Assembly: GCA_030704615.1 (NCBI GenBank)
Contig: CM060731.1
Location: 79,112,001 to 79,176,000, forward strand
Length of the DNA stretch: 64,000 bases
Direction: 5' to 3'
From: Takakia lepidozioides
Lineage: Eukaryota; Plantae; Bryophyta
Under the pieces are notes generated by a model that ran no database searches, was not told the DNA's origin, and worked only from the letters and a program-made list of their open reading frames with translations. Shown here one piece after another: positions 20,547 through 64,000 of this stretch. Each line of letters begins with the position of its first letter. The first letter of the stretch is position 1. A program made the position numbers and the translations under genes.

Positions 20547-21359
20547 ATTGCCCGGCCACAAAACCTCTCTAATCCGTTCTTGTGATCGTAACACGGAGCT
20601 TGGGACAAGAGACGTGTAGGGAAGGTATGAACCAGTGAAGCACCGCAAGTGTTCCTTGCCCCGAGTGAAGAATTTTCAAAAGAACTTCTCTACGAACGTA
20701 AAGAAAGAGTCAGCCTATGAGAATTCATACCCATGAGCCCGACTATTGTTGGTATCATTTCTGTGCTATCAAAAGAAAGCCTCGCTCTTGCTTTTGCTAT
20801 TCTGGTACTTGAACCTTCTTTGCTCGCCATCCACTTCCCTTTTACTATTTCCAGCCCTGCTTTTTGTTTGGTGGTCTGCACATAGAAACCCTAAAAATTC
20901 TTGAAAAATCCTTCCATGTGCGAGAAATCGGGAGGAGATGGCAGAGTGCAAGCTGGATTCGCCGCTCTTGTGACTCCTCCTTTCTTGGTCGGTCTTCAAC
21001 AGTATCAAGGGATGGAAAAGGGGCTGCTCATGTTGCAGACACATTTCATTTCCAGTGCTGGTTGCAGTCCACAAGGCGCTACCAGCGCAGGCACGGGAAA
21101 GCCTAGTATCTTCCATCCAGAGCTGTCTACAACTTACTCGGGTTCAAAGCATGTGGTGGTATTATCCACTATAACTGAATTCAAGCCTAGAAAATTTGAG
21201 TTCAAAGAGGGATTGTGCACACGAGGACCTTCAGAAAAGATGCCAGCGCAGAAGCGGAATCAAATAGTGCAGCTCCTATGTTGCTCTATTTGATGCCACC
21301 GCTGAGGAGGTACCCTGTGCTTTACTTGCTTGATTCATGTGCAATGTAATGGATAACCT

Positions 21360-32200: not shown

Positions 32201-33155
32201 CCTGCATCTATTTGAAGGAATGAAAAAGGAAGGCCTGAAGCCAAACAGTATCATCTTCATATGTGTTCTCTCTGCATGTAGCAATGGGGGCCTAATGGAT
32301 GAAGGCAGGCACTACTTTCAGTCCCTGAGAGATCATGGTCTGACTCCTACCATGGAGCACTTTGGCTGCATGGTCAACCTTCTTGGCCGTGCCGGGCTAT
32401 TGGATGAGGCAGAGGACTTCATTAACAAAATGCCAATCGAACCGGATGTTGTGGTGTGGAAAGCCTTGCTTGGTGCCTGCAGAGTTCATGGCAATGTGGA
32501 GGTGGCAGAACGTGCGGCAAAATCTATTCTCGAGTGGGATCGACAGGACACTGCAACATATGTGTTGCTATCAAACATCTATGCTGCAGCTGGCAGGTGG
32601 GATGAGACTGAAAAGGTGAGAACAATGATGAAGGTCAGAGGTGTCAGTAAGAAGCCAGGTCACTGCTGCATTGAGGTATAGGACACAAACCAAAGCACAT
32701 CCAGGAGTTGAGGAAATCTATGCTGAGCTAAGCAGATTATCTGGGCAGATGAAGGAGGCAGGGTACCTGTCTGTCATGCGCTTTGTATTGCATGATATGT
32801 GGAGGAGCTTAAGGAAATGTCTCTTTGCCACAACAGTGAAAAGCTCGCTGACAATTGCTTTTGGGCTCATCAACATGGCCCCCAGGATGCCTCTCCATAT
32901 CATCAATAGAAGGTCAGGTGGTTAGAAATCTGGAATTCGGACCCCATCGTCAAAGACACCAACATGTTTCCAAAGGGGAAGAGGATAGGAACGCTAGTCT
33001 CACGAGACCATTCAGCGACCAAGTTTTTGATTCATGGCTAGACAAGGCGACGTTTTAGAGCCAGGTAACTGTCTCTTGCAAGTCTTTTCTTTTCTGCAAG
33101 TCAGCTCTTTCACCACGTTGAAGATGGGCTCTGTTCTTGTGGGGAGTACTCGTGA
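29264..33155 (+). pseudogene. PLS-class PPR-E-DYW gene with N-terminal OSB-type PDF repeats, disrupted (PPR core open ~29770-32681)
   Basis: Transit-peptide-like N-terminus, 4 PDF-like repeats, 5 P1 motifs in PLS triplets, then P2L2S2, E1/E2 and KKPGHCCIEV. Lesions: TGA at 29711 where the paralogue has W, an extra A near 29765, a stop at 32679 and a frameshifted DYW (HPGVEEIYAEL..HNSEK..IAFGLI). The DYW tail FHHVEDGLCSCGEYS* lies at ~33108-33155 beyond a ~200-bp unrelated stretch. Confidence 0.85.
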
Positions 33156-39863: not shown

Positions 39864-42800
39864 TCAGCTCAGCTCAGCATGAATGTCCGCAATTTGTGGA
39901 TGCAATCTATCATCTACCATGAATATGTGCATCCCATTGCCAACTGCAATGCAGCTCCAACCTGGCTCCTTCCTGACACCTCTGATCTTCATCATTTTTC
40001 TCACCTTTGCAGTATCGTCCCACCTGCCAGCTGCAGCATAGATGTTTGATAGCAACACATAAGTTGCAGCATCCTGTTGATCCCACTTTAGAATAGATTT
40101 TGCTGCACGTTCTGCCATCTCCACATTGCCATGAGTTCTGCAGGCACCAAGCAAGGCTTTCCACACCCCAGAATCCAACTTCATTGGCATTCGGTTTATG
40201 AAGTTCTCTGCCTCATCCAATTGCCCAGCACGACCAAGAAGGTCCACCATGCATCCAATGTGCTCCACAGTAGGAGTGAGGCCATGATCTTGCCTGAGAG
40301 AATCGAAGTAGTGTCTGCCTTCCTCCACTAGGCCCCCATGGCTACATGCAGAGAGAACACATATAAAGGTGATAGCATTCGGCTGGAAGCCTTCCATTTG
40401 CATTTTTTCAAATAGTTGCAGGGCATCCCTATGACCACCATGTTGGGAACACCCTGCTATCATTGCATTCCATGACACCACATTTCGTTCCGTCATGTTG
40501 TCAAAAACTACCGTCGCATCCTTGATGCTCCCACATTTGGCATACATGTCGATAAGGGTATTGTTTAGAATGATATTGGGTACCACTCCAGCTTTCATGA
40601 TGTCCATGTGGACAGCTTTGCCCTTCACTAGGGCTGCTAGGATGGCACATGCATTGCAAACAGAAACGAAAGTGACCTGGTCGGGCTCCACCCCTCCCTG
40701 CTTCATTTGCTCATAGGTATCCAAGGCCTTAACCCCGCACCCATGCTGGGCATATCCTGCTATCATGGCATTCCATGACACCACATTGCGTTCAGCCATA
40801 TCATTGAACACTCCTTTTGCATCCTCAATACTACCACATTTAGCATACATGTCCAAAAGGGCATTGTCCAAAATGGTATCTGGTATAATTCCAGCTTTCA
40901 TGATGTCTATATGGATCTCTTTGCCCTTTTCCAGGGCTGCCAGGTTGGCACATGCATTGCAGACACAAACAAATGTGACCTGGTCTGGCTTCACTCCTGC
41001 TTCAGTCATTTGCTCAAAGGTCTCCAACGCCTCCATCCCATACTCATGCCGGGCATATCCTGCAATCATTGCATTCCATGAGACCACATTTCGTTCAGCC
41101 ATACTGTCAAACACTTCCTTTGCATCCTTGATGCTCCCACATTTGGCATACATATCAATGAGTGTAGTGTTCAAGATGATATTCGGCACAATTCCCACTT
41201 TCAAGATGTCAGCATGGACCTCTTTGCCCTTTTCCAGGGCGGCCAGGCCCGCACATGCAACGCAAACACAAACGAATGTGACCCGGTCGGGCTTCACCCC
41301 TTCCTGCATCATTTGCTCATAGGTCTCCACTGCCTCCATTCCATACCCAGCTTGGGCATATCCTGCTATCATCCCATTCCATGACACCACATTTCGTTCA
41401 GTCATAGTGTCAAACACTCCCTGTGCATCCTCGATGCTCCCGCATTTGGCATACATGTCCACAAGGGTATTGTCCAGAATGATATCTGGTATAATTCCAG
41501 CTTTCACGATGTCAGCATGCACCTTTTTTCCCTTTTTCAAATCTGCCAGGCTGCCACATGCATTGCAGACACAAACAAATGTGATCTGGTCGGGCTTGAC
41601 CCCTTCCCACCTCATTTCCTGATAGGTTTCCAGAGCCTTCATCCCCCACCCATGCTGAGCATATCCTGAAATCATTGTATTCCATGAAACTACATTTCGT
41701 TCGGCCATATTGTCAAACACTCCCTTTGCATCCTTAATGCTCCCACATTTGGCATACATGTCAACGAGGGCGGTGTCCAAGATGATATTTGGCACAATTC
41801 CACTTTTCATGAGGTCAGCATGGATGCCTTTGCCCTTTTCTAGGGCTGCCAGGCTGGCACACGCCTTGAGAACGCAGATGAACGTGACCTGGTCAGGTGT
41901 CACCCCTTCCCACATCATTTGCCCATAGGTCTTCAAAGCCTCTGCCCCATACCCATGCTGGGTATATCCTGTGATCATTGCATTCCATGAGACCACATTT
42001 CGTTCAGACATATTGTCGAACACCCGCTTCGCATCAACTATGCTCCCACATTTGGCATACATGTCCACAAGGGTAGTATTCAAGATGATAGTTGGCATAA
42101 TTCCAGCTTTCATGATGGCAGCATGGACCTCTTTGCCCTTTTTCAGCGCTGCCAGACTGGCACATGCCTTGAGCACACAAATGAATGTAACCTGGTCCGG
42201 TGTTACCCCTTCCTGCATCATTTGCTCATAGGTCTTGAAGGCTTCCCCACGATATCCCTGCTTTGCATATCCTGCTATCATTGTATTCCACGTAATCAAA
42301 CTTCGTTCAGGCATTTTGTCAAACACTAGGCGTGCATCCACAATGCTCCCGCACTTGCCATGCATGTTGACCAAGGCGTTTTGTACAAAGATGTCTGGCT
42401 TGAATCCAGTTCGGATAATGTGGGCATGCACCTGCTTTCCCTCTGCTAGGCTTTTCGTCTTGATGCACTCCTGCAGGAGACAGACATAAGTTTTGGAGTC
42501 TGCCGAAATGCCTCCTTGGTCCAAAATCTGCAACGCCTCTTCCAATTGTCCTGCCTTACATAGTGTCCTCAGATTCCCACATCTTTCATAAGTGATCCTC
42601 ATGGTGGGGGTGCTGGATTCACAGAACTGTGCTGCCACTGCTTTCAATTGACCATCAACCCGCAGCAGCTTCTTGTAGCCATTAATCCAGAGCCCCTTGT
42701 TGGTACTCTTGAGCTTGAGACATGGGTGTCTAGGATTGATCTTTCTGCTTCGATTGTCCCACCATTGGTTAGAAAAATATTCATTCCAAAGCTTCTCCCC

Positions 42801-43505
42801 ATCCCTATTTTCAAAGTTTGGATATCTGGCAGTAGCTGCATCCAGCTTCTCCAATTCAGCATCTACCTCAAGAGGTTTCACATAGCTATCAATCCGTAGC
42901 CCCTCGTTCTTACTCTTGTGCTTCAAATCTGGTCCTCTACAATGGATGTCTCTGCCTCGATTGTCCCACCAGTGACTTTGGTTTAAAAAATATCCTTTCC
43001 AAAGCTTCTCCTCATCAGTATTGTCAATTTTGAGATATTTGGCACTAGCTGCATCCAGTTTCTCCAATTCGCCATCCACCCACGCACGTTTCTTGCGGCT
43101 ATCAAACCATAATCCCTCATTGGTATTCTTGTGCTTGAAATCTGGTCCTCTAGAATGGATCTTTCTCCCTTGATTGTCCCACCATAGACTGGGATCTGAA
43201 AAAAAATCGTTCGAAAGCTTCTTCACGTCTGTATTTTGGGTTTCTTGATATTTGTGTATGTGGCATCCTTGCTCATCCCCCTGCCCATGAACTTGGTCCT
43301 CTTCTATTGGTTTCCACTGCCTCGGAATCGGCTTGAAACTGTTTGCAGCAGATCTAAATACAAGGCGGTTAGGAAAATGCACAAGGGTTCCATACAGAGA
43401 GCATAGACCACACCTTTTTGAAGCTCTGAGAACAGTGCACCTCGATGTGTCACGGGAACATGCGGCGGCCTCCACGCGTGCCATGCTTAATGTACTCGTT
43501 GCCAT
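39864..43505 (-). CDS. PLS-class PPR protein (1213 aa): 3 N-terminal OSB-type PDF motifs, PLS array, E1/E2 and truncated DYW (E+-like)
   Basis: Single open ORF. Transit-peptide-like start, three WWDN..K..PDF/LKHK-type repeats, 6 P1 motifs in ~101-aa PLS triplets, P2L2S2, E motifs and a KEPGWSCI PG-box, then a stop after HPQIADIHAELS. Confidence 0.9.
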   Translation of the reverse strand: MATSTLSMARVEAAACSRDTSRCTVLRASKRCGLCSLYGTLVHFPNRLVFRSAANSFKPIPRQWKPIEEDQVHGQGDEQGCHIHKYQETQNTDVKKLSNDFFSDPSLWWDNQGRKIHSRGPDFKHKNTNEGLWFDSRKKRAWVDGELEKLDAASAKYLKIDNTDEEKLWKGYFLNQSHWWDNRGRDIHCRGPDLKHKSKNEGLRIDSYVKPLEVDAELEKLDAATARYPNFENRDGEKLWNEYFSNQWWDNRSRKINPRHPCLKLKSTNKGLWINGYKKLLRVDGQLKAVAAQFCESSTPTMRITYERCGNLRTLCKAGQLEEALQILDQGGISADSKTYVCLLQECIKTKSLAEGKQVHAHIIRTGFKPDIFVQNALVNMHGKCGSIVDARLVFDKMPERSLITWNTMIAGYAKQGYRGEAFKTYEQMMQEGVTPDQVTFICVLKACASLAALKKGKEVHAAIMKAGIMPTIILNTTLVDMYAKCGSIVDAKRVFDNMSERNVVSWNAMITGYTQHGYGAEALKTYGQMMWEGVTPDQVTFICVLKACASLAALEKGKGIHADLMKSGIVPNIILDTALVDMYAKCGSIKDAKGVFDNMAERNVVSWNTMISGYAQHGWGMKALETYQEMRWEGVKPDQITFVCVCNACGSLADLKKGKKVHADIVKAGIIPDIILDNTLVDMYAKCGSIEDAQGVFDTMTERNVVSWNGMIAGYAQAGYGMEAVETYEQMMQEGVKPDRVTFVCVCVACAGLAALEKGKEVHADILKVGIVPNIILNTTLIDMYAKCGSIKDAKEVFDSMAERNVVSWNAMIAGYARHEYGMEALETFEQMTEAGVKPDQVTFVCVCNACANLAALEKGKEIHIDIMKAGIIPDTILDNALLDMYAKCGSIEDAKGVFNDMAERNVVSWNAMIAGYAQHGCGVKALDTYEQMKQGGVEPDQVTFVSVCNACAILAALVKGKAVHMDIMKAGVVPNIILNNTLIDMYAKCGSIKDATVVFDNMTERNVVSWNAMIAGCSQHGGHRDALQLFEKMQMEGFQPNAITFICVLSACSHGGLVEEGRHYFDSLRQDHGLTPTVEHIGCMVDLLGRAGQLDEAENFINRMPMKLDSGVWKALLGACRTHGNVEMAERAAKSILKWDQQDAATYVLLSNIYAAAGRWDDTAKVRKMMKIRGVRKEPGWSCIAVGNGMHIFMVDDRLHPQIADIHAELS

Positions 43506-45703
43506 GTCTGCTCTTTCTCGAAATCTTGCAAGCCCATCTGCTCCATCTCGAACTGTTGCAACCTGCGGTGCTGCCTTCCACTGTGTAGGTTTGAAGCCGA
43601 GCCTGGTTAAGTCAGATCAAAAACTGGTTGCTCTCCACTGTTGCTCATACACTGAACGGGGCCCCCCACTCCGTTCCCTTCAATTCACCAACACTCCATC
43701 TCTCACCGATAACAACATTTATTACCCCGGAGTCCTTCGAGTGAGTCCTTCGAGTCTTCAAAGTGAACCTGTGAGGATTTTGTCCAGCTTACAGAAAGTA
43801 CGACAGCATTATACGCTAAACCCGAAACCCTAGTCTCGTAGACGAGAATTGGAGGACTTTTGATCGGGAGAAAGTAGCGGCCATTGAGAAGTGGGTGCAT
43901 CACAATTATCTGCTCATCGCCGTCATTGTCACGGGCTCTCAGTTGTTAATTCTTGGAGTTGTCATGAATAACTCCAATCAGAATTCACATGCGTTTCGAC
44001 TTTGGTGGATAATTTTACTTTGGGATGTTTTTAGATTTTGGCGGAGTTAAGGTCACTCTCTCAAACAGGACGAGGTGGGGTTTAAAAGAGCCATGAGAAT
44101 TCTATAGAATGGCTCAGTTGTATCTGCGTGAGGGCATAGCATCGCACCAATATCTGTATGACCAACATTTTGCTGACAATCTATGTATCATCTGCTCACA
44201 ACACCAGTGAAGGAGCTAACTAGGCCTGCAAAGGACAAAAAAATCTGGCTAAGAGAGATCTTGATACTGGATTCGAAGGATAGCTCAGATGGTCAAGCTG
44301 GTTGAATGTGGCATAAGGCCTTATGAGATGGGTTATGACAGGCTCGCTCAGATTTTTTTATGAGCCAGTTCAGATTGCCGATTCAAGCTCGACCTTCACA
44401 CACCCCAGATTCGGTGGATTTTGTGCTGTCAATGCCGGAGATATCAAACCTTTTCTTGCACAGGTAATGTGTTTTCTTTTGTCCTAAGTTGCTCGATCTA
44501 CCACAGGTTGAAGAGTGAAAATGTGGTCGAGAGTGGATCTGCCCTGTGGCGCGAAGCTGAGATGTTTCAGCCCAATCATCGAGTTCCATGGCCACGACTG
44601 CCCTTACGCCATTCTTGAAGATGGAGTGGATGATGCTTTTTGTCCACTCCGTTAGAAAAAATTGCGAACTGGGAGAGATATGGACATAGCTCTTCCATCG
44701 CTCCAGTCGAGGCCTCATAGTGAATTTATCAAGCACGCGACAGCAGCCGCATTTAGAGCACATCTCTCCAACTGCGTGGCTTTGACCGCTTTGCCGACAT
44801 TGAACGCTCTTATGAAGAAGAGGTATGGACGTTAGGGGAAGAGGAGATTGGTTTGGAGTGCGAGGCGGTGACTGAGCACAATCATGCCAATGGAAATGTC
44901 TGTGATGCGGATCAGGTATTTGTGAGGCATAAGAAGGGACAAAAAGGAAAAGGAAGGGAGGGAAAAGAAACTAACTCAGTGATAAGATCTGACCCAAGAA
45001 TGAGTTGAGTGAACTGTGTTCTGGCAGCCCATGATTTACTTGGGAGCAAATGATTTTGTTCCCGCTGGTTTGAATCAGTAAGCATTTAAACAATGTTGCA
45101 CTGTCTCGATCAATGATTTCAAGTGAACAGACAAAATCTAGCACACTGTCAAATATCAAGCTTGTCGAAAGAGTGCACTTGCAGGTTGAGCAGCCCCATG
45201 ATTTTATATCCTGATAACTTTACAATGACACATAGCTGAAATCTCCCCTTCAGGCCTTGCACGAGAGCTTCTGCAATATCCTTTTGAAAGGGGTCCAAGT
45301 TATAACGTAACATTATGCAGCCATAATCCTCATACCATACACCTCCCCAAGGTGGAGAGAAAGGGTGGCAACCTAAAACCCGAGATGTTTGTCTCCCAGG
45401 TTCACCTCTTCAAATCACCACATGGACTAACTGATTGCAATGGATCTGTCTTTTCACAAAATAGGCGCTCTCCTTTCACCGACAACATGTGCAAACCAGA
45501 AGATGACACTGCAGCTCGCAACCCCGGAGGCCCAAGGGTCCTCTTCAGATTCCTCAGATTCCTGACACCTTCCCACCTTAAAGCATGTTTCAATAGGTTA
45601 TCAGAACTCTTTTGCCAATAAGAAGCCTCTGGAAGCCTGTATCTTCACGGCAATCCAGCAGACACATATTAGGTTGGTCAATGTACCACAACTCCATTCA
45701 CTG

Positions 45704-46477: not shown

Positions 46478-47847
46478 CTTGCAAAGAAACCCTGACCAAG
46501 TCGATGTGCCCACCTCCTACGCAAGCGATGCGAGAAGGATGCCTCCCACTTCAAAGCAATTTGGAGGTTCCATGAAACTGATTTGTTGCTCTACCATGCC
46601 ATCAGGAACACTGTCATTCACAAACAACAGAGAACGCTTCATTAAGATACAATCAAGGAACACTTGAAGGCGATAAAAACTCAGGTTGGATCAGGTGTTG
46701 GAAACAAGATAGTGCATAACTGTGTTATGCATGAAGGTAAGAGGTCTCCTGGTGATCACTCAGATACCCAGAAACTTCACTCTAGAATGGGACTCACTGT
46801 GGCAACCACAACCACATGTGCCACCTCTGTTTCAAACCTAGAGGGGTAGAGAAGCAGCGCTGCAAGCCAGCTCACATTTGTTAATATGAACCATGTGAAC
46901 TATTGCCTAAAGGGTATGCCATTCAATGAATATAGACAGACATGGGCGTGGCCTCTAGCAAAAAGCCCTCCAAAAACCTGATTCAGATATTCAATTGTAC
47001 AACCGTTGTGAAAGCAAATATAGCATTCTGCGCTGCCACAACCACTACATATGGCAGACAAGATTTCTCGAAGCATCCACGTCTCGTTGACGTCAGGTTT
47101 GGTGCGTTTCGAATACAACCCATGAGTACAATTCTGAACAGAACCCACACGCAGTAAATTTTGCCGGCAGGGAAAAGGTAACGATTACTGAGTTACTTAC
47201 GTGCCTTAGCGGCTGATTCTTGCGTCTTTGTTTGCAAGAGGACACCGTTACCTTTGCCCCTCATGTAGCTGCTATCAGGGGGAGAGAGAAAGAAACATAG
47301 TGTCCAGTTGTAAAAAAGGCGCCTTTTCTCTGCTGATAACCTCCTGCTTGGCACATGAAAGAAGAAAGAGTCATAAGAGGGAATCATTCGACCGCTATTG
47401 CTGTGACTTTGCAACATTCTTCCGTATCAGAAAAGAAAAAAACAGGGACGGGACAGATAACCGTGGACGGAGAGAGAATGTACTCATACGACGTTGTTTG
47501 CCGTTGTGCAGAGTTGTGGAGAGAGAGACCGCTCTTACCCAAATCACGGCCTTCAAATTTCACAGGCATGTCCATCCTCGACTCCTGAAACAAAAATCCA
47601 TGCTGCTCGATCCAGCAGTCAAATTCAAAATTGTCCTGTTCAAACGGTTCTGCAGAGTCCAGGAAGGAGATACATGTGAGGAGACAAGACGGGAAAAGCA
47701 AAGGACCCTCAATACGCTAGACACCACACGTTTGTTTCGTCCGTCACCTTGGCCATCCCCGTCGACGGAAAGCTTCCGTCGCCGTCGCCTCTCTCGTGGG
47801 TCTTGTAGGGAGCGGAAGGAAGGAGAGGTCCTTTGGCAAGCGGAGCG

Positions 47848-49184
<1,337 letters not shown>

Positions 49185-49939: not shown

Positions 49940-52900
49940 TCTTGACAATGGGAGGCTTCACCCTCTGCCCCCTATTGCTACTAGTTCTATAATACCACCT
50001 CCTCGCCGCTCCAAACACAATGCATGTCTGGAGACCTGCCAAATGGATTATGGTCAGCCTTAGCAATCCCTAACTGCCCTGTTCAGGCAAACAGAAACTG
50101 AGACAATGAGCAATTTTTAAGTGAAGACAAGGACCATTCTTCATGTACATAGACAAGCATCCATGACATACAGCTGCCTGAAGGAATAGGAACAAAGAGG
50201 GGCAGTGGACATCGGCAATCTACTGCTAGCCTAACTCTAAATGAGTGGAGAAGAGAGAGCTTTTCTTAGTAGTTGCTGAGATTGACCAATGGGTTTCTGC
50301 CTCTAGTCTGTGATAGTTTGGTAGTTTGATCGAAGAAACATCGAGATGTTTAATATAGTACATCCAGTATCCCTAGCCAGTTCAACTAGACTATGTACAG
50401 CAATCTTCTGGTACTCATCTCCTTCGCTTGAATGGCATAATTGTTCATGCCAGTTGTGTTCAGGAAGTCTTCTGTGCCTTCATTAACTGATCATAACCTC
50501 CACCACTGTTACTGTCCTGGTTCCCCTGGTTCTTGCGATCCTGCTTTTCTCAGTGTGGTGGCAGACCCCAGGCCCATTTTGGACAGACAAAAGGAAGAGG
50601 GCGAATTTGTAGTGCTGAAGTAACATCCAAACACTTCTGTAAGCCTTTTCATGGAAAGAATGCACCTCCATCACGGGCGTGTCTACTCCAATGGCTTGAG
50701 TGCATGACTAGTTGTTGAACCCTGTGGCAGAGGCAAGAGAAGGTATCTGTCATTCACTTTGCTGAAAATTCTTGGCTTTGTGGTTTGTTCTCGGAATTGT
50801 AGGGAGGCATATCTAACAGGGAACCGATTGTGCTGAAAATTATGTTCAAGCCTACATCAACTGTCATTGTACATTCTCATACTTGTGTACCCAAGCTCCA
50901 TGGTGATCATAGAAACCAACCTCATCTAACCTTTCATTGTGTTCAATAAGCTGACCTAATGCACGGTGCCTTGATGTAGTTTCCTTTCAGGTACAAGCAC
51001 ACACATGGGCTAAGAGGAAAACCAGCTCATCGCTACGGCTCCACTCAATGTATGCTGCATTCAAGCATTTTCGTTGTTGTTCCACATGTCTTTTGTCCTT
51101 CCTTCAGTAGAGATGGCAAGGGTACTACACATAGTATCTCAATGGTTCAAAGCTCCTTGGTGAATTGCTAATGAGACATTGTGGAAGTGTGAAAGAAGTG
51201 TTGGACAGAATGACTAAACGAGATGTAGTTGGATAGAGTGCAATGATGCCAGTATACAAATGTTGGGTACTGGTTAGGAGGGTTTCAAGAGTTATGAGCA
51301 CACAAAGGGACAACCAACTTCATCACATCAATATGCATGCTGCATATTCTAATCTTGCCCCGTCACAACTTTTGAAAAATTAATCTCTTTCAAAGTAAAC
51401 ACGGGCACACATGGCTCATGGGAGCCCAACAAGGGAAGGGAAAGAAGAAGCCATACAAGTCTCCCGGTCTCTTGCACTATGATGGAATTGGAACATGTTC
51501 CAAAACAAAAGAACAGCTTGTCTAGACTTTTGCACCAAAACTAAGACCGCCAACCAAACCCACAGTGTACAGGTGTCGCATGGTCCCTCTTCGTAATTCA
51601 GGTGGAAATCCAGTGGACGTCCATGTGTGTTGCTTCATGTCATACATCACAATTACTTCATTGGGTGTGGTCCACAATAAGAGATTGTCATGGCTCACCA
51701 CTTGAACAGAGTCCATGTTGTCGAATCTAGTTCCTGGAATCTCAGTTCTTGCTATCTCCAGCCACTCTGCACTCGTTGCAGAACCTTTCAACTCCCACAC
51801 ACAAATTGTTGGTGAGACGTGCATTTGATCGCGAGGCGGCCCAACCATCCACAGGCGCCCCTCACTCTCTACAAGTCGACAATTCCAACCACGTCCACCA
51901 AAGTCGTCAGGCATCCGTGCAGCAACTTTAGTCCACACACCCGTGCCAATGTCACAAGCCATCACAATGTTGTCTTTCTCATTCTCAAGTATGTAAAATA
52001 GAGCAAAGAGAGTAGGGCCGCATATCACACTTCCTGTACAATCCTGCAAGGTTATTGAGGGCATGTTTCCAGTCTCGGTCCAACACTCGCATGTTGAGTC
52101 ATAGATGTGCGTTCTCCAACGTAGTCGTGGTTCGGCGTAATTGTATGACATCACAAGGACCTTGTAGGTGTTCCTGCATCTATCCACAATCATATTTACT
52201 CTGTTGACGTAGAGAGGTTCTGAATTGTCGTGAGGCCGGGCAGGCAATTGTGTGGAAGTGTTCAACAGAGGATTGTACACAATCAATAAGTCCTTGTCCA
52301 TCAACATGCAAAATAAGCCTCCGTCTGCAGCACAAACTCCGTATATGGAATTATCCTTGGGGGGTTTGAGGTCGATCTTGTGCCACCGTCGAGTTGTGGG
52401 CGCATACCACATACAACAATCGTGGTAGTATCCATCCGGGAAATACAAGCATCTGCCTAAAGACAAGAGATAGGAGTGTTGGTGAAGAGGGAGGTGCTGA
52501 CAGAGTTGTTGGAACCAAGCAGTGGATGGGAGGGAGTTCCACAACTTGCACACCGACTTAAAGCGGGCAAGACTTGGATATGGCAAACAGGCCAACACTA
52601 CCATCACTAACTCGAAAGGAAGCCTGCTCCAAATCTCCTCCTCCATATTGACCACCCACAAAACCTCTCTAATGTGTTCTTGTGATCGTAACACGGAGCT
52701 TGGGACAAGAGACGTGTAGGGTAAGGTATGAACCAGTGAAGCACCGCAAGTGTTCCTTGGCCCGAGTGAAGAATTTTCAAAAGAAAAGGAGTGAGCTTAC
52801 ATCTCATAAGCATTTACGAAGGGAAAGAAAGAGTCAGCCTATCAGAATTCATACCCATGAGCCCGACTATTGTTGGTATCATTTCTGTGCTATCAAAAGA

Positions 52901-55550: not shown

Positions 55551-57153
55551 TTTCCTCCCCCATGCTCCAAGGTTGATGTCCCCATCAACGCTTCTTTCGC
55601 TTGTAAGGTCGCCCTTCGAAAGCTGCAACCGCCTCGGATGCGTTTCCCATTTCTGAGGCACGCACCCAAGATGCCTCTACATGATGATAGCCCTTCCATT
55701 TCACGAGATACTCCGTTTCTCGATTCTTGAACCTCCTCGACTTAAGCACTGCCTCCACCTCGTACTCAGGTTCATTTTCATGGTCCAACAGCATAGGTGG
55801 CGGACGCAACACTTGCTACTGATTCGGACGCGCTTCATCTTTGAAGTAAGGCTTCAAAAGGGAGACGTGGAATACCGGATGCACCTTGTTGTTTGCCGGC
55901 AGCTCCAATTCATACACGTCCTCATTCATAACCTACCGGATGCGAAAGGACCCCGCATACGGAGGTACGAACTTCGGACTCACTTCCGGAGGTAGTCGAA
56001 AATTCTTGATGTTCAACCAGACCTCCGTGCCTGCCTCAAACTTAACTTCCATCCGCTTCCGATCCGCCTGCCGTTCATACCATTTTCTGGCTTTGGCAAT
56101 GTTGTACTTTGCGAGCTTCAATAAATGCTCGCGTTCTTCCAGCACCGCTGCTGCTGCCGGTTCCTCAACGTCTTGGGCGGCCCAACTTGTCAGCACCAGA
56201 GGTACTTCTCCATAGACCAATACGAAAGGAGAAACTCCCGTTGCGGAGTGTTTTGTGTTATTATAACAGAACTCTGCCGCATCCAAGTGCTCCACCCAGT
56301 CCGATTGGTTTGCCGACACGTAATTCCGCAAGATCTGCTTCACTACGGAATTCACCCTTTCCATTTGGTCATCCGTCGTAGGTCGGAAAGCGGTGCTCAT
56401 CTTGAGCCTCGTCCCCATTTTCTTCCAAAGTGCCCTCCAAAATTTACTCGTAAACTTTGGATCGCGGTCCGAGACAATATCCTTCGAAAATCCATGATGC
56501 TTGAAGACGTGGGCGAAGTAAAGTCGCCCCGTCTCCTGCGCCGTTACTGTCTCCTTGGTGGGGATGAAATGGCCCATTTTACTGAACCTATCCACCACCA
56601 CCATGATCGCATCGAATCTTTTTGACAGTGGCATAGCAGTCATGAAATCCATCGAGACACTTTCCCAAGACCCCTCTGGAATCGGCAAGGGTTGTAACAG
56701 CCCGCTTGCTTTTTGCACTCGCTCCGGTTTTGTTGGCATGTGGTGCATGTCTTGACATACTCCTCGGCCTCCTCCCTCAGTTTAGGCCAGAAATACTTTT
56801 TCTTCAAAAGTGTCGCGGTGCGTTTGGCTCCGCCGTGGCCCGCAACTGGGCCATCATGGCATTCTCTCAAGAGACTATCTCTTGTCCCTCCCTTTGGTAC
56901 GTAGAGACGCTTTTGCTTATACCGAAGCAGTCCATTTTGCAAGTGAAACTGCGATTTAACCCCCATCCTCAAGTCCCGCATCACGGACTTCACCATCGCA
57001 TCCTTCTCGTAAGCCTTCCGGATCTTCTTTTGGAGCGCCGTCTTGCCCTTGTACACCAACATGAGCTGCTGCTTTCTACTTAAAGCATCGGCCACCACAT
57101 TGTCTCGTCCCGGTTTGTACTGGATATCCACGTTGGACAGTGGCAAAGTGTCT
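54517..57153 (-). mobile_element. Ty3/gypsy chromovirus 3' part: integrase, chromodomain and 3' LTR; interrupted at 57153/57154 by a nested element
   Basis: IQYKPGRDNVVADALSRK (RNaseH end), Zn-binding H..GH..YFWP..CTTC, a frameshift, the rve core (VSMDF, DRDPKF, QMERVN), HPVFHVSLLKPY and chromodomain EYEVEAVL..YLVKWKGY..SW (55585-55812). Two in-frame stops lie near the end. Confidence 0.92.
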
Positions 57154-57696
57154 TGTCACCTAATTTGTTTTGGGGATGTCGTGCACCTAAGCATCGTGCC
57201 ACAACATACATCGTTGTCCAACCACACTTCCTGCATATAGTCCTAGAAAGCCACGCCACAATGATACAGAAATGGTGAAAAGAGGAGAAACCACTCTATC
57301 ACGTTATATAAGTCAAGCCAATGGCACCTTTGCTAAAGGACTCCACCATACAGACCTCACCCACTCTTCATCTCAAGTACTAGAGCTATGGCGGCGAGAG
57401 GGGCCTCGGGAGGCTCGACTAGAAGAAGACGAGCGTGCCTACGTCTCACGTGGAGATAACCTCCCCACGTCCCAAGTGAGGTTCGCCACCTCACTTGGTA
57501 CATGGAACCAAATGAAGTCCCAATGCCAACAAAATACAAATATAAATGTATAATGTCCTAATTAGTTAGAAATAACTATTTCTAACTAATCACAAATAAA
57601 ACCATGACAGCTGTCGTGCACCTAAGCATCGTGCCACAACATACATCGTTGTCCAACCACACTTCCTAGCATATAGTCCTAGAAAGCCACGCCACA
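57154..57696 (-). repeat. 3' LTR region of the MTase-gypsy element, containing an ~85-bp direct repeat (57177-57260 and 57612-57696)
   Basis: Minus-strand AGGGGGG-CAAT precedes TGTGGCG at 57696. The left end reads TGTCAC at 57154, abutting host integrase sequence. The ~85-bp unit itself has TG..CA termini. Confidence 0.7.
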
Positions 57697-57953
57697 ATTG
57701 CCCCCCTAGCTGGTGATTAGGTCCCTCTAACACCGGATAGCTTACAAGTATCCACCCCAATAAGATCATCGTTTGGTCTTCAATCACACAAGTCCCAATA
57801 CCTGAAGTCGATAGATCAAGAGGCCCGGTGCAAACGTAGCCCCATCGTTAGTCGCCTTCATACAATCCATGATGTTCAGTTGAGTATCCATGGCATTGAA
57901 GCCCCACTAGCTAGACCTTGGATCACTTGTCCGCCTCACCATTGTCATGCCCA

Positions 57954-58271
57954 TTACCTCTGTCCAAGGCATCGTGGACACAACCATTCTCCGATAGGAA
58001 CCTCCTCAAGTGGCGGTGTTAAGCATCCCATGTGCCACCCCCTTAAGCATTTGTCACACACCAACATGGTTGCGGCGCCACCAGCATGCCCACATAGCAT
58101 GCAACGCAACCCTGCAGGTACCACTGCAAGGTTGGAATCTATCCTCCCATCCACATGTGGAAGGTGACATGGCGCACAATTGCGCACATGGTCCTTCCAT
58201 ACCATGCCATCTCGACCCTCCAGAATCAACACTCCTGAAGGCAATACCTCCCTGACCCTTAGAATCAGACG
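57954..58271 (-). pseudogene. Integrase C-terminus with PHD finger (C4HC3)
   Basis: CMLC..MLVCDKCLRGWHMGCLTPPLEEVPIGEWLCPRC. It is in frame with integrase ORF 58272-59801 across a single TGA. Confidence 0.92.
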
Positions 58272-61069
58272 TCATGCTGTGACATCCAAGGTCGTAGGCG
58301 ATGTCTGCTGCAGATACACATAGTCCCCAGGGTGGAAACGCTGAACACTAGGCCGATATCCCCCTCCACGTATAGTGGCGTACCTCAATGTGTCTCGGTG
58401 TTGGGCAATAGCAAGGTTCTCAAAAGCCATAGGCATGACTCTCTTGAACAACTCTGCCCGCTGGGCACATGCTTGTATCCACACATCCGGATCATCAAGG
58501 TTGAGAACTATTGTCGCCTCCCTGCGAATAGATGCAGGCAAATCCGGCTCTCGGCCGAAGAGAAGAAAGTAAGGTGAGAAGGAGGCAAGTGAAGCTTGTT
58601 TGTTGAACCTATAGCCCATAGCTAGCCAAGGCAGTTGAAGGTCCCAATCTCCTAGGTGTCCCTTCTGCAAACCGTACTTGCGCAAACCTCTCTTGACTGT
58701 CCGAACAACTCTCTCCGCCAAGCCATCAGCCTCAGGATGATCCCGAGAAGTAGTGCGGTGATCTATCAAGGCTTGCTCATACAAAGCCTGAAACTCCCCC
58801 AAGAACTCTTTCCCCTGGTCCATGAGTACCTCGGCTGGAGCACCAAAATGGCTAAGCACTCGATCTAAGAATGTATACGCAGCCCCCTCACTTGCCTTGT
58901 CAGGCAATACCACCAGTTCAATCCATTTGGAGAAGTGTTCCACCATCACCAGCACATACTTGTTGTGGCGAATCGTCAATGGCAATGGGCCTGCGAAGTC
59001 AAGACTCCAACGATAGCCCAAACCCATAATGGATAAAGGATGCAATTGTGGAGTAGGAGCGTTGAAAGAAGCCCGCACTCTATCACACAACATGCACCTT
59101 GCCACTAAATGTTGCACATCCGTGTGCATGCCCCGCCACCAATACTGCCTTTGCAGCAAACTATGAGTGCGCCGCACCCCAAAATGTCCCAACTCATCAT
59201 GGGCATGGCGTACCAATCGCACTCGTTGTGTTGGATGAGGCACAATCCTCACTCGTCCATCCTCCCATACCCGGAGTAGATGAGTCCCATCCCACTTGAA
59301 CCTCTTGGCTCGTTGTAGGACCCGATCTCTCTCCTTAGCAGTCACACTGGCTGCTGTCTCTCCGGTACGAAGGTATGCCAACACTGCTGCATCTTCATGC
59401 ACATCCTTAGCACCACCAAACTCTTCACTAGTCTCTGGATCGTCATGCACGCTATCTACATGACCAATTGCATGGGATGGACCAGCTTGAGCTCCCATTG
59501 TTAGAATGCACAAAAAGACCGATGCATGCCATCCTGGCACCATCTCCTGATTTGTCTCACCATGCCACCGAGCTCCAGTATCATCATGCTCGCTCGTGCA
59601 TGGATTATGACTCAATCCATCTGCATCCCGATTGACAATACCGGCTCGATGCACCACCTGGAAGTCGTACTCTTGAAGCATAAGTGCCCACCGTGCAAGC
59701 TTCTCTGTAAGCTTGTCTGACTCCATCAACCACTTCAATGGTTGGTGATTCGTGACAAGGGTGAAGAGATTGCCATAGAGGTAGCATCTGAAATGTGCCA
59801 CTTCCCATACTGCAGCTAGACACTCCCCTTCATAGGAACTATACTTCGCCTGGCATCATTGTTCGAGCGGCTAGCATATGCCACTACGAACTCCCTTCCA
59901 TCATCATCCACCTGTGTGAGCACTGCTCCAATCCCCAGCATACTCCAATCCGTATGTAGCTGGAAAGACCGCCCCCGAATAGGCTGCCTCAGAATAGGTG
60001 CAGAAGTCAATCGAGCCTTGAGTTTATCAAATGCTTCCTCCTGCTCCTCCTCCCATTGCCACTCCTGACCCACCTTGGTCAACTTGGTAAGAGCCTTTGC
60101 AATGCTGCTAAATCCCTTGACAAACCGTCGATAGTAGTTTGTCAATCCCATGAAAGCACGAACTCTGCTCACATCCATGGGGCGTGGAATGCATGCAATG
60201 GCCTCCACCTTTGTCTGTTGAACACCCAATCCTCCAGGGTATATCATGTGGCCCAGATACTCAATCTGATTGTGGAAGAACTTGCACTTTCCGGGGTGCA
60301 CTTTCAACCCGTGCGCTCTCAAGCGCTCAAACACCACCTGAAGGTGTCTCTCATGCTCCTCAACCGTAGCACTAAAGACAATGATGTCATCAATATAGCA
60401 CCGGGCAAAGTCTAGCCCCACGAGAATCTTATCTATGACCCTCTTAAACTCTGTAGGAGCATTCTTCAACCCAAACGGTAAGAACCGCCATTGGTACAAA
60501 CAATCCTTCTCGTGTTGGTCAATCCCCCAAAATGTTGTCTTTTGTTTGTCAGCCTCTTTGATTGGCAACTGGTGGTAACCGGATCGCAAGTCCAATGTGC
60601 TAAACACCTTTGCATGCCCAATGGCATCAAAGATCTCCTCTGGAGTTGGCATGGCATATCTATCGGACTTAGTCTGACGGTTCACTGGACGATAGTCCCC
60701 ACACATCCTTCTTTTTGTCCAATTGCCATAGATATCCTTCTTAGCCGAGGCATACTCCCCGCATGACAACTCCACCAATCCAGCTTCAAACAACTCCATA
60801 GTCCGTGACTGGATCAATGACCTCTCCATGTCACTATACCGGTAGGGCCTTCGAAAGATTGGCGTGTCACTTGCCAAAGCAATACGAATCTCCTGACCCT
60901 TCAAACTCCCCAAATCCTTCAATCCGAAGGCAAAGCAATTCCTATAAGCCCTTAGAAATCGTTGGATCCTCCGTCTCTCTCCTCCGGTGACTGTAGGTCC
61001 AAAATCTGGTTCCCAATTGTTCTCAGTGACTGCAACCTTGGGTACACTAGGCTTGGAGGTAGAAGACAA
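58272..61069 (-). pseudogene. Gypsy RT-RNaseH-integrase
   Basis: ORFs 59816-61069 (RT and RNaseH start) and 58272-59801 (RNaseH end, Zn finger, rve), joined by one frameshift near 59850. Confidence 0.95.
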
Positions 61070-61479
61070 ATCCTTTGGTTGCTAGATAGCAACCTCTTGG
61101 GCCTTGTCCGCCCAATCTGACTGTGGCGTAGCCTCCACTTGCTCCGCCATAGCCACCTTGAGAACATCCTCTGAGCAAGAAACATCCTCAACCTCTTCAA
61201 AAACCTTGGTCACCTTGGCCTCCAACTGATCCTCAGTCCATGGCTCTCCCCACTCCTCATACTGCTGCTTGAGAGATCCAATGACTCTCTCTTTGCGCAT
61301 CTCATCCCACATCTCCCATGGGTGTTTGCAACCCACGATCTTGTGCTCGCCCCACTCACTGCCTCAACCGTCCCGGTTGGCAGGGAGGATGCACTATCCA
61401 ATGGGAGTGCAGAAGTAGCCATCAATGCTTGCAATCTCCGTTGCTCAGCCATGCACAAGCCAATGACCCATGTCAAGCA

Positions 61480-62400
61480 ATTTATATCCATTGTTTGACC
61501 CAACACTTGGCGGCGTGATGTCTCTGACAGAGCTAACACATCTGTAGTGCCGGTGGCAAATCCCATTGCCCGCTCTCGCTCATCCGCATTGGGCTCCACC
61601 AATTGTTGTAGCACACTGTCCCAAATCAATCCAGGACCATTGTCTCAAAAAACATGAGACGAGGGAAAGCTCATGAGCATAGGCAAAGCCGAACGTGGCT
61701 GCCCCACTCGATTGACCACTGCTAGAGGTGGACGGTCATCATGTCGCACCCTCTGTGGTTGTCTCCCTTGGTCCAAAATGCCCTCAACCGTGAGATTGGG
61801 TGGCCAATGAATGGAATCGTATGCTCTCTTGAGCAGCTCCGGTGGTGCAAGATTGGTCCACCACAATCGAGGTCGATGCGCGCGTGATCCCACCGCTGCT
61901 GCATCCAATAGCACCGCCGATCCAATCCAAGACCGCACCTGATGCACACTGGCCATAACCTTGGCCCGAGAATCCCCCATAAGAGAAACATTCTCCAAGA
62001 TATAGCCTAGAGGTTGCACTTGCCTCGTCTGCAAGTCCCGCAACACTCGCAACATCTCCCAAAACAAATGCGATCGTGCATCATGCAAGCCATTCCCATG
62101 ACCTGCGAGAGAGTGTCCTTGGCAAGGCCATCTGGTTATCACCAAGTCAATGGAACCATGCCGCTGCAAATCATCCGCCCCCAGCAAGGTAATGTCTGCT
62201 GGCAAGGCCTTTTGATACCCTTGAACTGCTGAAAGAGGCAACAACTCAGGACCGGTGTGTGAGCAAGGTAATGTGGCGCATGGAAATACGCCGAGCAATC
62301 TCATCCTTCTCCACATACAAGTACTTGCGTACTTTAATCCCTGCTTGCAACACTTCTGCAAGCCCAGTCTCATGCCTCCAAACAGGTCTAGCAAACAAAT
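61480..62400 (-). pseudogene. C5 cytosine DNA methyltransferase domain (DNMT3/DRM-like motifs) within the retrotransposon polyprotein
   Basis: Motif I LLDLFGG(MSTGL), motif II YLYVEKD (recovered by correcting two compensating frameshifts at ~62368 and ~62250), IV DLVITRWPCQGHSLAG, V RSHLFWE, VI YILENV, VIII AHRPRLWWTNL, IX ERERAMGF and X RQVLGQTM, in canonical order. Confidence 0.92.
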
Positions 62401-62859
62401 CCCTGAGTCAGGTGGTTGCCAGGTAATGGGCACTGTGTCCAAATGAGCTAACTCAGGAGGTCCAGGTGATGTCACTGAACTCCTCTCACTCACCAATGGA
62501 ACGGCCTCCCGCCATGCTTGGTGCACACAAACGCCTGCTACTCGATGCAAATTCCCAACCGTACCCCACAGTGGAATATGCACAGGCACATGAGGAAGCA
62601 AATCAGCCTTGTATGCCAATTGTTTGTCCTCATCAGGTGATGGCCTATCATCTGCATGGCTATTGCCCTCCAAGAGCTCACCACCCCAAGCCACCACCCC
62701 TGAGAATGCAGCCAATGTGGGCATCATGTTCCTATGATCCACCGCTACATTCCCAATAAACCGCACTGGGAGCAGTGCACGTCGGCCATCTCCTGACTGC
62801 CATTCCGGCCTGTAGGATGTCGTTTCCTCCCAAAAGTCCAGAGTGAATCCCATGGGGTA

Positions 62860-63180
62860 TAACACCGCCCCACCAACAAGCACATCATAAGACATCGCGT
62901 TCGTAACAATGGCTTTAGCTCTCATGACTGAGCCATCCGTAGGATGGTCCGGCTGCAATCGAATGAAAAGCTCATGGCATGTAATTTCTCATGTCTTCTC
63001 TGAACCGCCCAAAGATGTTTGAATTTGGAAAGGACAAGGCTCCAAATCCGCCTCTGTAAGGCCCAAGCCTACAATTGCTATTCTTCCCAACATCAATGGT
63101 TGTGCTCTCGAGTCCAACAAGACCCGCAATGGCCTATACCTCTTCCCGGCTGGGCCACCCAACTGAAACACACCATCCTG
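62860..63180 (-). pseudogene. Retropepsin-like aspartic protease domain
   Basis: RVLLDSRAQPLMLG (DSG mutated to DSR) ... IQTSLGG ... YDVLVGG, upstream of and in frame with the MTase across one TGA at 62989. Confidence 0.75.
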
Positions 63181-64000
63181 ATTGTCCACCAGGACTACCC
63201 CAGGAGTCACCATACTACGCTCAATGCCTGGTCTAGCTGACAACTCCTGCAACCTTGCAGTTGCCGCTTGCCATGGTGCAGCTGTGGCTGTCTTCACCCT
63301 TGAGTCCATGACATCCATGCACTGCACATTATCCGCTATCCCCGCAGATAGTGCCGATGCATCACCACTCTCACAGAGTCTAGCTGCTAGTCTGAACACA
63401 GCAGCTGGCCGAATCCCCGACATTGCAATGGTCATCGTAGAAAACAATGGAGCTTGGCAAACCGTCGTAGCCGCCCCCAACAATGTACTGGCTGCACCCT
63501 ACTTTGCAACACCACCCACTGGCATTTCCCGAGCCACACCAACTCTCCCCACTGGTACTCGTGGCTCTACCTTTGACACACTTGGGTGAGCGGGTACCAT
63601 CGATGGCATAGTTGGCACTGTCTCAGCCAATGTAAAAGACTGTGGAAGCCTTGTCTGTCGACTTGCTTCCCCTCTTTGTGGATCAAAATCCACATCTGCT
63701 CATTTTGGCTCAGGAGCACGCGTTGCTGCTCAAGTGACAGCAACTGCAGAGTCCACATGCAATGGTCCAGCAAGTGCGGCTCCACACATGAAGCCCATAC
63801 CAATCTGGTCTTCCCTAGGCAAAGGAGGTTGTGCAGGTGGGGCTTGAACCTCAGGCCTTGGAGCTGACGCCACATTAGTAGTGGCCATGGCAGCAAGACG
63901 TTGCTCTAGTTAGGCAAGCCTATACACCATGCCTTGGTCATGACCTTGACCTTGACCTTGTGCTCCTTGGTTTTGGTTACGACCTCCACCGCAACCTTTG

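Follow-up and report, generated by a model that had tools for sequence, protein, structure and literature searches.

Since 2018 it has been a puzzle that a transposon should retain the very enzyme with which its hosts silence it, and the sole plant-side example before was an alga with few copies, whose enzyme was inactive in yeast. A locus in the bryophyte Takakia lepidozioides raises this question in a land plant. We analyzed a stretch of 64,000 nucleotides (the window; contig CM060731.1, positions 79,112,001 to 79,176,000), whose minus strand carries, in order, a Gag tail, protease, C5-methyltransferase, reverse transcriptase (RT), RNase H, integrase, and PHD finger. The reading that we favor, with moderate confidence, is that this is a decayed Ty3/gypsy-type copy from a many-copy family of non-flowering land plants, in which ORF1 (Gag, protease, and a DNMT3) and ORF2 (RT, RNase H, integrase, and PHD) are separated by a conserved, likely leaky TAG, so that the methyltransferase would be made and packaged at the Gag level and would likely methylate new cDNA.

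A decayed gypsy-type element with a methyltransferase and a PHD finger

The domain set and gypsy order that an earlier note had read from the letters were borne out by Pfam, with matches to DNA_methylase (PF00145, 1.3e-10), RVT_1 (PF00078, 3e-32), RT_RNaseH (1.4e-17), Integrase_H2C2 (PF17921, 1.5e-16), rve (PF00665, 8.4e-13), and PHD (PF00628, 7.7e-11), the last agreeing with the PHD finger that it had placed on the integrase. The protease-RT-RNase H-integrase order, DDE integrase, polypurine tract, and CA end are those of Ty3/gypsy elements. The protease region of the window had no Pfam match; PF13975 was matched on four distant protease homologues (P0027, P0092, P0175, and P0184). The features are as follows.

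63200..64000, minus strand: C-terminal Gag portion plus spacer, truncated at the window edge; 38-42% identity to Marchantia and metagenome Gag-protease-DNMT proteins
63912-63910, 63732-63730, 63702-63700, and 63501-63499, minus strand: Gag-region stops; the homologues have no stop in this region
62770..63165, minus strand: aspartic protease; catalytic Asp codon 63114-63112; 57% identity to P0002/P0004/P0174
61420..62430, minus strand: C5 cytosine methyltransferase, DNMT3-like, from PF00145 and motifs
62400-62374 (I), 62127-62122 (PC), 61995-61987 (ENV), 61875-61867 (RxR), and about 61503-61486 (X), minus strand: methyltransferase motifs
Near 62368 and 62250 (shifts) and 61647-61645 (stop), minus strand: methyltransferase lesions
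61085..61419, minus strand: linker closing ORF1, with an HPW box and terminal V-A as in homologous ORF1 ends
Near 61349, minus strand: linker shift, a lesion; indel in 16 contigs each of runs X1 and X2
61076..61084, minus strand: in-frame TAG (61084-61082) followed by CAA CCA (UAG-CAR-YYA type), candidate readthrough site
59990..60922, minus strand: RT; YIDD 60397-60386; 15-nt deletion near 60743
59667..60055, minus strand: RNase H (PF17919/PF17917); shift near 59851
58500..59234, minus strand: integrase, H2C2 zinc finger and DDE core; 79-84% identity to relatives
58274-58272, minus strand: stop upstream of the PHD finger, lacking in the intact homologue P0350
57954..58103, minus strand: PHD finger ending ORF2; stop 57956-57954
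57697..57711, minus strand: polypurine-tract-like stretch, immediately preceding the TG of repeat B1
57612..57696, minus strand: terminal repeat B1 (TG...CA); 87-bp direct repeat with B2, 98.9% identity, E 8e-37
57261..57611, minus strand: B1-B2 spacer and candidate repeat A2, whose A1 partner would fall beyond the window; TATA-like box, about 57310-57304
57177..57260, minus strand: terminal repeat B2, closing the element in CA at 57177
55585..57176, minus strand: insertion target outside the element, a decayed chromovirus from the end of its RNase H through integrase to chromodomain (PF17921 5e-20, PF00665, PF00385 2.4e-13)

The earlier note had ended the element at 57154; its 3' end is 57177, and from 57176 downward the sequence belongs to a different (chromovirus) element, whose RNase H frame picks up again at 57176. 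The 5' end lies beyond the window. The window copy is dead, with eight internal in-frame stops and four frameshifts (near 62368, 62250, 61349, and 59851) that spread its coding sequence over three frames. Since other copies differ from it by indels at all four shifts, we regard these as lesions of the window copy. The protease stop at 62991-62989 is also a lesion, because 97% of the depth of run X1 carries another letter there. The stop at 63501-63499 was considered as a Gag/Pol boundary; the single difference listed there among other copies speaks neither for nor against this, but homologues continue across it, and it was treated as a lesion.

The methyltransferase is DNMT3-like

Methyltransferase motifs I, II, IV, V, VI, VIII, IX, and X had been listed earlier in canonical order; of these, I, II, IV, VI, VIII, IX, and X were found, unpermuted and with the catalytic Cys, ENV, and RxR included. 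In a PDB sequence search with homologue P0006 (66% identity), the best match was DNMT3A (1.3e-9), with DRM-type enzymes at 2e-3 or worse. A plant DRM identity was rejected on the unpermuted motif order and these weak DRM matches. The predicted model of P0006 had a pLDDT of 96.7 and matched DNMT3A in Foldseek at 1e-20 (TM 0.71/0.84). By sequence and predicted fold, the enzyme is thus DNMT3-like, with DNMT3A/B as its closest solved relatives. The catalytic Cys was kept in 128/128 homologues, the Glu in 132/133, and the motif VIII Arg residues in 129/132 and 129/130. Identity to P0002/P0174 was 66-70% in the methyltransferase and 34-42% in the spacers, and RT identity was 63-74%.

What such an enzyme would act on bears on the favored reading. 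In plants, methylation of an element generally means silencing. This suits a rival account, to which we give perhaps a one-in-four standing, in which an active enzyme would restrain the element itself or work on another target (element RNA or the insertion site), or would bind nucleic acid, its catalysis being of no consequence for the cDNA. These options were raised in the 2018 paper, which also proposed self-methylation of cDNA (PMC5890265, section 11), and the K. nitens enzyme described there gave no methylation in yeast (section 10). However, DNA C5 catalysis is favored by a fold of DNMT3 rather than DNMT2 type and by Cys, ENV, and RxR residues that do not vary, though these leave unspecified which DNA. 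CpG depletion was tried as a trace of self-methylation and rejected: observed/expected CpG was 0.35-0.66 in the element and 0.35-0.59 in host genes (rpl8 exon, 0.81), so the element, being no lower than host genes, bears no compositional trace of self-methylation.

A conserved stop separates the methyltransferase from RT

The earlier note had described one ancestral polyprotein frame; the coding sequence instead lies in three frames with shifts, and a conserved stop (TAG 61084-61082) falls between methyltransferase and RT. Six homologous ORF1s (P0002, P0005, P0006, P0009, P0021, and P0046) terminate at the same V-A/S, although five of the six are Marchantia models (the other end is from a metagenome contig), so they are not independent. 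The intact 1,056-amino-acid RT-to-PHD ORFs P0350 and P0353 begin 9 residues past the stop. In run X5, all three contigs spanning it were consistent with TAG; for run X1, the variant table was blank even at places of contig disagreement and was set aside as uninformative. Among 68 RT-bearing proteins, 21 start no more than 20 residues past this place and 4 extend upstream of it, with 20 starting further down and 23 lacking an anchor. In the window, ORF1 and ORF2 share one frame with this single family-trait stop between them. On these comparisons, we take the TAG to be a family trait and a conserved ORF break.

The stop is likely read through. The CAR-YYA context (UAG-CAR-YYA, as defined in PMC3159437) occurs at one of the eight internal stops, TAG 61084-61082 alone, against a background of 0.4% per position; the match was spotted after the fact, and post-stop nucleotides are known for the window's family only. 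No stable RNA structure was found 3' of the stop (z +0.62). Run X8, guessed to be RNA, gave 31 contigs, and no contig of runs X8 and X9 lay at the junction.

RT and integrase could be reached in other ways. In Ogre elements, splicing or a separate transcript has been described as the route to RT-integrase. The same family with the same ORF split but with such a route in place of readthrough is an unlikely, though live, account of our element: nine land-plant proteins continue past the methyltransferase, most of them skipping the ORF1 end, and in REXdb 35% of Ogre elements have a spacer between GAG-PROT and RT. The skips, however, vary from model to model (P0004, P0008, P0011, P0012, P0016, P0334, and P0307) and so look like gene-finder introns, and the window ORFs share a frame and are parted by one stop, which has a readthrough-type context.

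Less probable still is one uninterrupted polyprotein, as read by the earlier note and the 2018 paper, with the TAG a lesion or the mark of a non-autonomous subfamily. The authors of PMC5890265 put DNMT and RT in one ORF in K. nitens; P0022, P0168, and P0180 are continuous ORFs, and the algal relatives P0022, P0032, P0072, and P0120 have no ORF break. At the place of the stop, six dead distant loci (L001-L006) have a Tyr codon followed by CAA, and P0311 reads Ser-Ser-Lys across it, at odds with CAR-YYA. Against this stand the homologous ORF1 ends, the starts of the RT-bearing proteins, and the run X5 contigs, and as far as these sequences go they make a single polyprotein improbable for the window's family and favor two ORFs in the same frame. 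Since the conserved stop cuts DNMT from RT, the methyltransferase would belong to the Gag-protease ORF and be made at the capsid level. The earlier statement that it is in frame with the protease stands, while its plain assignment to pol is wrong or incomplete.

The methyltransferase was inherited with RT

The 16 longer homologues came from Marchantia (14), Sphagnum (1), and a metagenome (1), and the Marchantia and Sphagnum gene models share the Gag-protease-DNMT arrangement at 66-71% identity, which agrees with the earlier view that this is no passive host capture. The methyltransferase is present in homologues, and the 34,345 contigs of run X1 are spread across all 30 bins. Summed contig depth does not equal copy number and was left unconverted. 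RT and integrase bins were 2-5x deeper in X1 than methyltransferase bins, and given this, relatives lacking DNMT may exist.

The trees were built with FastTree from the 141 of 184 proteins in which DNMT cover reached 270 or more of 325 positions; they were rooted at the midpoint or on a single outgroup, and host DNMT3 and REXdb references lay outside them. The window falls in a land-plant clade (support 0.999), as the proposed land-plant host would have it, nested in a protease-DNMT clade with K. nitens P0117 (1.0), which we assume to be one of the copies of PMC5890265. Distances in RT track those in DNMT (rho 0.67; 0/999 permutations as high, 43 rows). In a sister clade with one named source, Scenedesmus, the same DNMT is placed between RNase H and integrase. 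By these trees and distances, DNMT has been inherited together with RT, as an old inheritance and no one-off capture. The element thus represents, on the land-plant side, the Gypsy-DNMT3 lineage first known from Klebsormidium. The novelty claimed for it holds insofar as we found no paper on a land-plant form, and gives way insofar as the charophyte lineage was already described.

A recent one-off capture of a host DNMT3 can be set aside as very improbable: non-flowering land plants do have DNMT3 genes (PMC6453930), but those of host plants carry DUF3444 (PMC6453930), which is absent downstream of DNMT in the window and in the 28 homologues scanned, the element DNMT is intronless, unlike multi-exon host plant DNMT3, and its distribution over liverwort, moss, Closterium, Klebsormidium, and Scenedesmus elements, in a tree with host DNMT3 sequences outside it, contradicts capture. 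A metagenome scan gave 6 loci from 118 candidate stretches, all strongly decayed; viral scans gave 0/2 in one and in the other 1/97, a phage methylase 31% identical; and 0/16 prokaryote genomes scanned had a match.

The PHD finger and a proposed mechanism

In PHD fingers that read H3K4me3, a cage Trp precedes the zinc His by two residues. In the family, this position is Gly in 67/70 PHDs, which thus lack the reader signature, and the nearest PDB structures are CHD4, PHF12, KDM5B and KDM5A (KDM5A/B PHD1), and PHF21A. DNMT3 enzymes act where H3 is unmethylated at K4. The PHD finger probably docks on the H3 tail, and probably on one unmethylated at K4. The K. nitens integrases P0210 and P0252 also bear a PHD.

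We propose that a minority of ribosomes would read through the TAG to add the RT-to-PHD extension, that the protease would release DNMT, and that DNMT, made at the Gag level and packaged in the particle, would likely methylate new cDNA before or at integration, with the PHD finger docking on an H3 tail. The ORF split predicts that a particle would contain numerous copies of the enzyme, rather than a single one for each RT. A wider scenario is more tentative: a green-plant-wide lineage predating the chlorophyte-streptophyte split would have kept one DNMT3 and one PHD throughout while the enzyme moved between two polyprotein positions; the land-plant readthrough stop would have brought DNMT to the Gag level, so that cDNA would be methylated in advance in each particle and then brought by the PHD to chromatin unmethylated at H3K4; and bryophyte methylomes could have been enlarged by thousands of such copies.

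Comparison with known systems

KnitGypsy-Dnmt3/Gypsy-DNMT3 (PMC5890265; preprint 10.64898/2026.05.21.726589) has the same gypsy domains, an intronless, unpermuted DNMT3-like domain in the clade shared with P0117, and B-A-B 3' repeats as in the window element. These repeats are part of a DIRS-like A1...B A2 B layout, of which A1 would fall beyond the window. A Ka/Ks below 0.2 across copies also marks KnitGypsy-Dnmt3; for our family, conservation was seen at the protein level. KnitGypsy-Dnmt3 differs in its charophyte host, as opposed to a land-plant host with high copy number, and in the reported single ORF where ours has the conserved stop; the main text of PMC5890265 has 0 matches to PHD. In the Tat clade (REXdb, PMC6317226), 49% of Retand and 14% of Ogre elements show a single stop separating GAG-PROT from RT, but Tat elements have an additional aRH and lack both DNMT and PHD, whereas P0350 shows one RNase H region by Pfam. 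Tobamovirus and MuLV gag-pol readthrough (PMC3159437) share the UAG with CAR-YYA and an in-frame downstream polymerase, and the tobamovirus type also has no stable 3' structure; our element has a protease and methyltransferase upstream of the stop, and its readthrough is a candidate only.

SymbioDIRS-Dnmt3 is also a retrotransposon-borne C5-methyltransferase, with enzymes that methylate CG de novo in yeast, and EpiLTRs combine a writer and a reader, the latter a chromodomain, but these are tyrosine-recombinase elements or DNMT4-sister enzymes, which their papers regard as acquired independently. Chromoviruses resemble our element in a histone reader at the integrase C terminus, which is a chromodomain in place of a PHD, and no methyltransferase occurs in the REXdb lineages. 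Phygy and Selgy, compared by description only, have no extra domain listed in REXdb; Phygy targets NCGN, and the one visible flank of the window element is not NCGN.

The lineage lies in the genetic model Marchantia polymorpha, with near-complete gene models (e.g., Mp4g09160 and Mp8g17980), so substrate, sequence context, and expression are testable there. Many family copies sit unnamed in the Marchantia annotation, and family copies can inflate DNMT3 counts in bryophyte annotations.

Domain order and decay of the element

In six-frame translation and Pfam searches, the minus strand of the window reads Gag tail, protease, C5 methyltransferase, RT, RNase H, integrase, and PHD, with these Pfam matches:

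minus strand, C5 methyltransferase (PF00145, 1.3e-10)
minus strand, RT (3e-32)
minus strand, RNase H
minus strand, integrase (PF17921 and PF00665)
minus strand, PHD (7.7e-11)

The domain order claimed in an earlier note, with a methyltransferase between protease and RT and a PHD on the integrase, is thus borne out. The single ancestral polyprotein frame that it described is not confirmed; this copy is dead, with frame shifts at ~62368, ~62250, ~61349, and ~59851 and eight internal stops. We also found a 15-nt deletion at ~60743, and contigs of other copies had indels at 4/4 of the frame-shift sites. Compared with contigs of sequencing run X1, the window has A/T where G/C is found elsewhere at 235 places and the reverse at 111, a bias of about 2:1 that decay of methylated cytosines would produce and may explain.

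The 3' end and its insertion target are arranged as follows:

57711-57697, minus, purine tract 3' of the PHD stop, then TG
minus, repeat B1, 85 to 87 nt, after the purine tract and TG
minus, spacer between B1 and B2, ~350 nt, with a TATA-like box inside
57177, minus, CA that ends repeat B2 (read from the sequence)
55585-57176, minus, decayed chromovirus with RNase H end, integrase, and chromodomain, the insertion target of the DNMT element

The chromovirus RNase H frame picks up again beyond the CA at 57177. According to PMC5890265, the ORFs of DIRS elements lie between repeats A1 and A2, and A2 itself sits between two B repeats; the Fig. 4c legend gives KnitGypsy-Dnmt3 this DIRS-type A1/A2 plus B/B layout, of which only the 3' half is visible in the window. 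Alternatively, the 3' repeats may be an ordinary LTR and a partial duplicate. A 30-nt near-palindrome lies within repeat A (57561-57590, minus). The chromovirus has a CpG o/e of 0.97, well above the remainder of the window, and its bin was the deepest of all in the contig-depth comparison.

The family and its two layouts

A search with the DNMT part found 16 longer proteins among 1575 candidates (14 from Marchantia, 1 from Sphagnum, and 1 from a metagenome), so the methyltransferase segment is present beyond the window copy. A phmmer search of 1.84 billion representatives with the metagenome homologue P0006 gave 3942 matches at 1e-3, and the best 150 of these sort into two layouts, PR-DNMT-RT versus RT-RH-DNMT-INT-PHD. 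The first is found in the window, Marchantia, Sphagnum, and Closterium; Calypogeia and Klebsormidium proteins, which are DNMT-bearing pieces, were placed in it by identity or tree. Scenedesmus (P0047 and P0173) is the sole named source of the second, of which we found no description in the literature searched. By our own count, a PHD is present in 39 of the best 150 of 3942 matches (P0030-P0159 set, second layout).

When 141 homologues are placed in a tree by their DNMT, the PR-DNMT-RT layout forms one clade (support 1.0; 33/33 assigned rows, together with P0117 from Klebsormidium nitens), and the window falls inside a land-plant subclade (support 0.999). The RT tree splits into the same two layouts (support 0.952). 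RT and DNMT distances are correlated (rho 0.67; 0/999 permutations; 43 rows, 36 of them with the RT-RH-DNMT-INT-PHD layout), which argues for long co-inheritance and not co-evolution, since shared ancestry alone yields such a correlation.

The methyltransferase

The closest solved sequences to the family DNMT are DNMT3A (1.3e-9) and DNMT3B, followed by HaeIII and DRM-type chains. The predicted model of P0006, a natural homologue (pLDDT 96.7), matches DNMT3A-DNA complexes (E 1e-20; TM 0.71/0.84), showing a DNMT3 fold at the level of the model. Among 133 distinct homologues, picked by similarity and therefore biased toward conserved rows, the catalytic Cys is kept in 128/128 (5 gaps), the ENV Glu in 132/133, and the motif VIII Arg pair in 129/132 and 129/130. 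Between the window and the Marchantia and metagenome ORF1s, identity is 63 to 70% in the DNMT, 57% in the protease, and 34 to 42% in the spacers; the window RT is 63 to 74% identical to its homologues. The element is real and under constraint at the family level.

In non-flowering plants, the host's own DNMT3s have a DUF3444 domain (PMC6453930), and Pfam found no DUF3444 in the window or in 28 homologues. Together with the clade shared with K. nitens P0117, this upholds the view that the enzyme is not a passively captured host fragment. A methylase on a phage contig (L007:10001-10531) is 31% identical to the family DNMT.

A conserved stop between DNMT and RT

An in-frame TAG (61084-61082) separates DNMT from RT in the window. 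With end positions read by eye, ORF1 ends at the homologous V-A/S in six land-plant-clade proteins (Marchantia P0002, P0005, P0009, P0021, and P0046 and metagenome P0006/P0174); two partial models stop two residues before it and six end earlier. Nine continue past it, seven via skips of varying size and one into unrelated sequence, while P0311 crosses the stop site with Ser. On the RT side, 21 of 68 RT-search and cluster proteins begin ≤20 residues after the stop site, 20 begin further down, 4 reach upstream, and 23 lack an anchor. Two of these proteins are open from RT to PHD over 1056 aa, and their contigs reach 17.5 kb; they are known from the RT-to-PHD part alone.

Sequencing run X5 belongs to a different study; across 61070-61114, one of its contigs agrees with the window at every base. 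Two further contigs, with 3 other letters each, share an overlap of exactly 30 nt with that contig, the pattern of graph neighbours, and the three depths add up to the total at the TAG; from these overlaps and depths we infer that all three read TAG. By contrast, a stop at 62991 is replaced by another letter in 97% of X1 depth. The earlier note's single polyprotein therefore stands for the methyltransferase and protease, joined in ORF1, but the conserved stop cuts RT off.

The stop context, TAG CAA CCA, fits the tobamovirus consensus UAG-CAR-YYA (PMC3159437, in excerpt); CAR-YYA follows 1/8 internal stops of the window copy, against a background of 0.4% of positions. Counting against a conserved readthrough motif, six decayed metagenome loci (L001-L006) have a Tyr codon at the stop site, then CAA; P0311 does not fit CAR-YYA there; and several algal relatives have a single continuous ORF through the site. 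P0117 (labelled partial) and two relatives, P0092 and P0184, share an end point just past the DNMT, and an ORF break may thus exist in this algal clade too.

Relation to described elements

Among the papers searched, the name "KnitGypsy" is used in one, and a preprint (10.64898/2026.05.21.726589) uses "streptophytes (Gypsy-DNMT3)"; its supplements may include land-plant copies. Retand (49%) and Ogre (14%) elements are already known to have one stop that separates protease from RT (PMC6317226); a search of that paper, including the supplement and one table, found no PHD and no DNMT. PHD-retrotransposon fusions are known, e.g., in cnidarians (10.1101/2021.11.30.470311, in part). The comparison also covered parts of PMC9033089, PMC11982613, PMC12344493, and 10.1101/2021.02.12.428880. 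Our searches of the openly accessible literature brought up no paper on a DNMT-bearing gypsy family of land plants. The claimed novelty as a land-plant family holds to that extent, but the family is an extension of a described lineage. What is new is the land-plant range, including a model species; a sister layout in green algae; and the conserved stop that places the enzyme in the Gag-protease ORF. The figures and supplementary figures of PMC5890265 may show the ORF layout or PHD.

Proposed mechanism

Beyond the anatomy, DNMT3 fold, conservation, and ORF break documented here, we propose that most ribosomes would stop after Gag-PR-DNMT and a minority would read through to RT-RH-INT-PHD. The protease would free the methyltransferase within the particle, where it would methylate cDNA; its purpose might be camouflage, protection, or self-restraint. 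A compositional trace of self-methylation was not found in the window. When expressed in yeast, the K. nitens enzyme showed no activity, a result that the authors call inconclusive (PMC5890265). The PHD would bind the H3 tail, probably K4-unmethylated; its cage position has Gly instead of Trp in 67/70, and the closest PHD structures are CHD4, PHF12, and KDM5A/B.

Neighboring genes

The window also contains the following:

10598-11323, minus, LINE-type endonuclease fragment
19443-20675, minus, F-box/beta-propeller gene, paralogue of 51522-52796
29514-32681, plus, long PLS-type PPR gene with E motif (Pfam)
35632-36420, plus, pogo-type DDE_1 fragment
39864-43616, minus, long PLS-type PPR gene with E motif (Pfam)
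47809-48315, plus, ribosomal protein L2/L8 exon
51522-52796, minus, F-box/beta-propeller gene, paralogue of 19443-20675

That the host is a land plant follows from these PPR genes, which are of a lineage-restricted type, and from the integrase of the DNMT element, which nests among Calypogeia and Riccia sequences. Repeated WWDN-type units, with no Pfam match at 1e-4, lie ahead of each PPR gene. The pairing of F-box and PPR genes looks like a local duplication.
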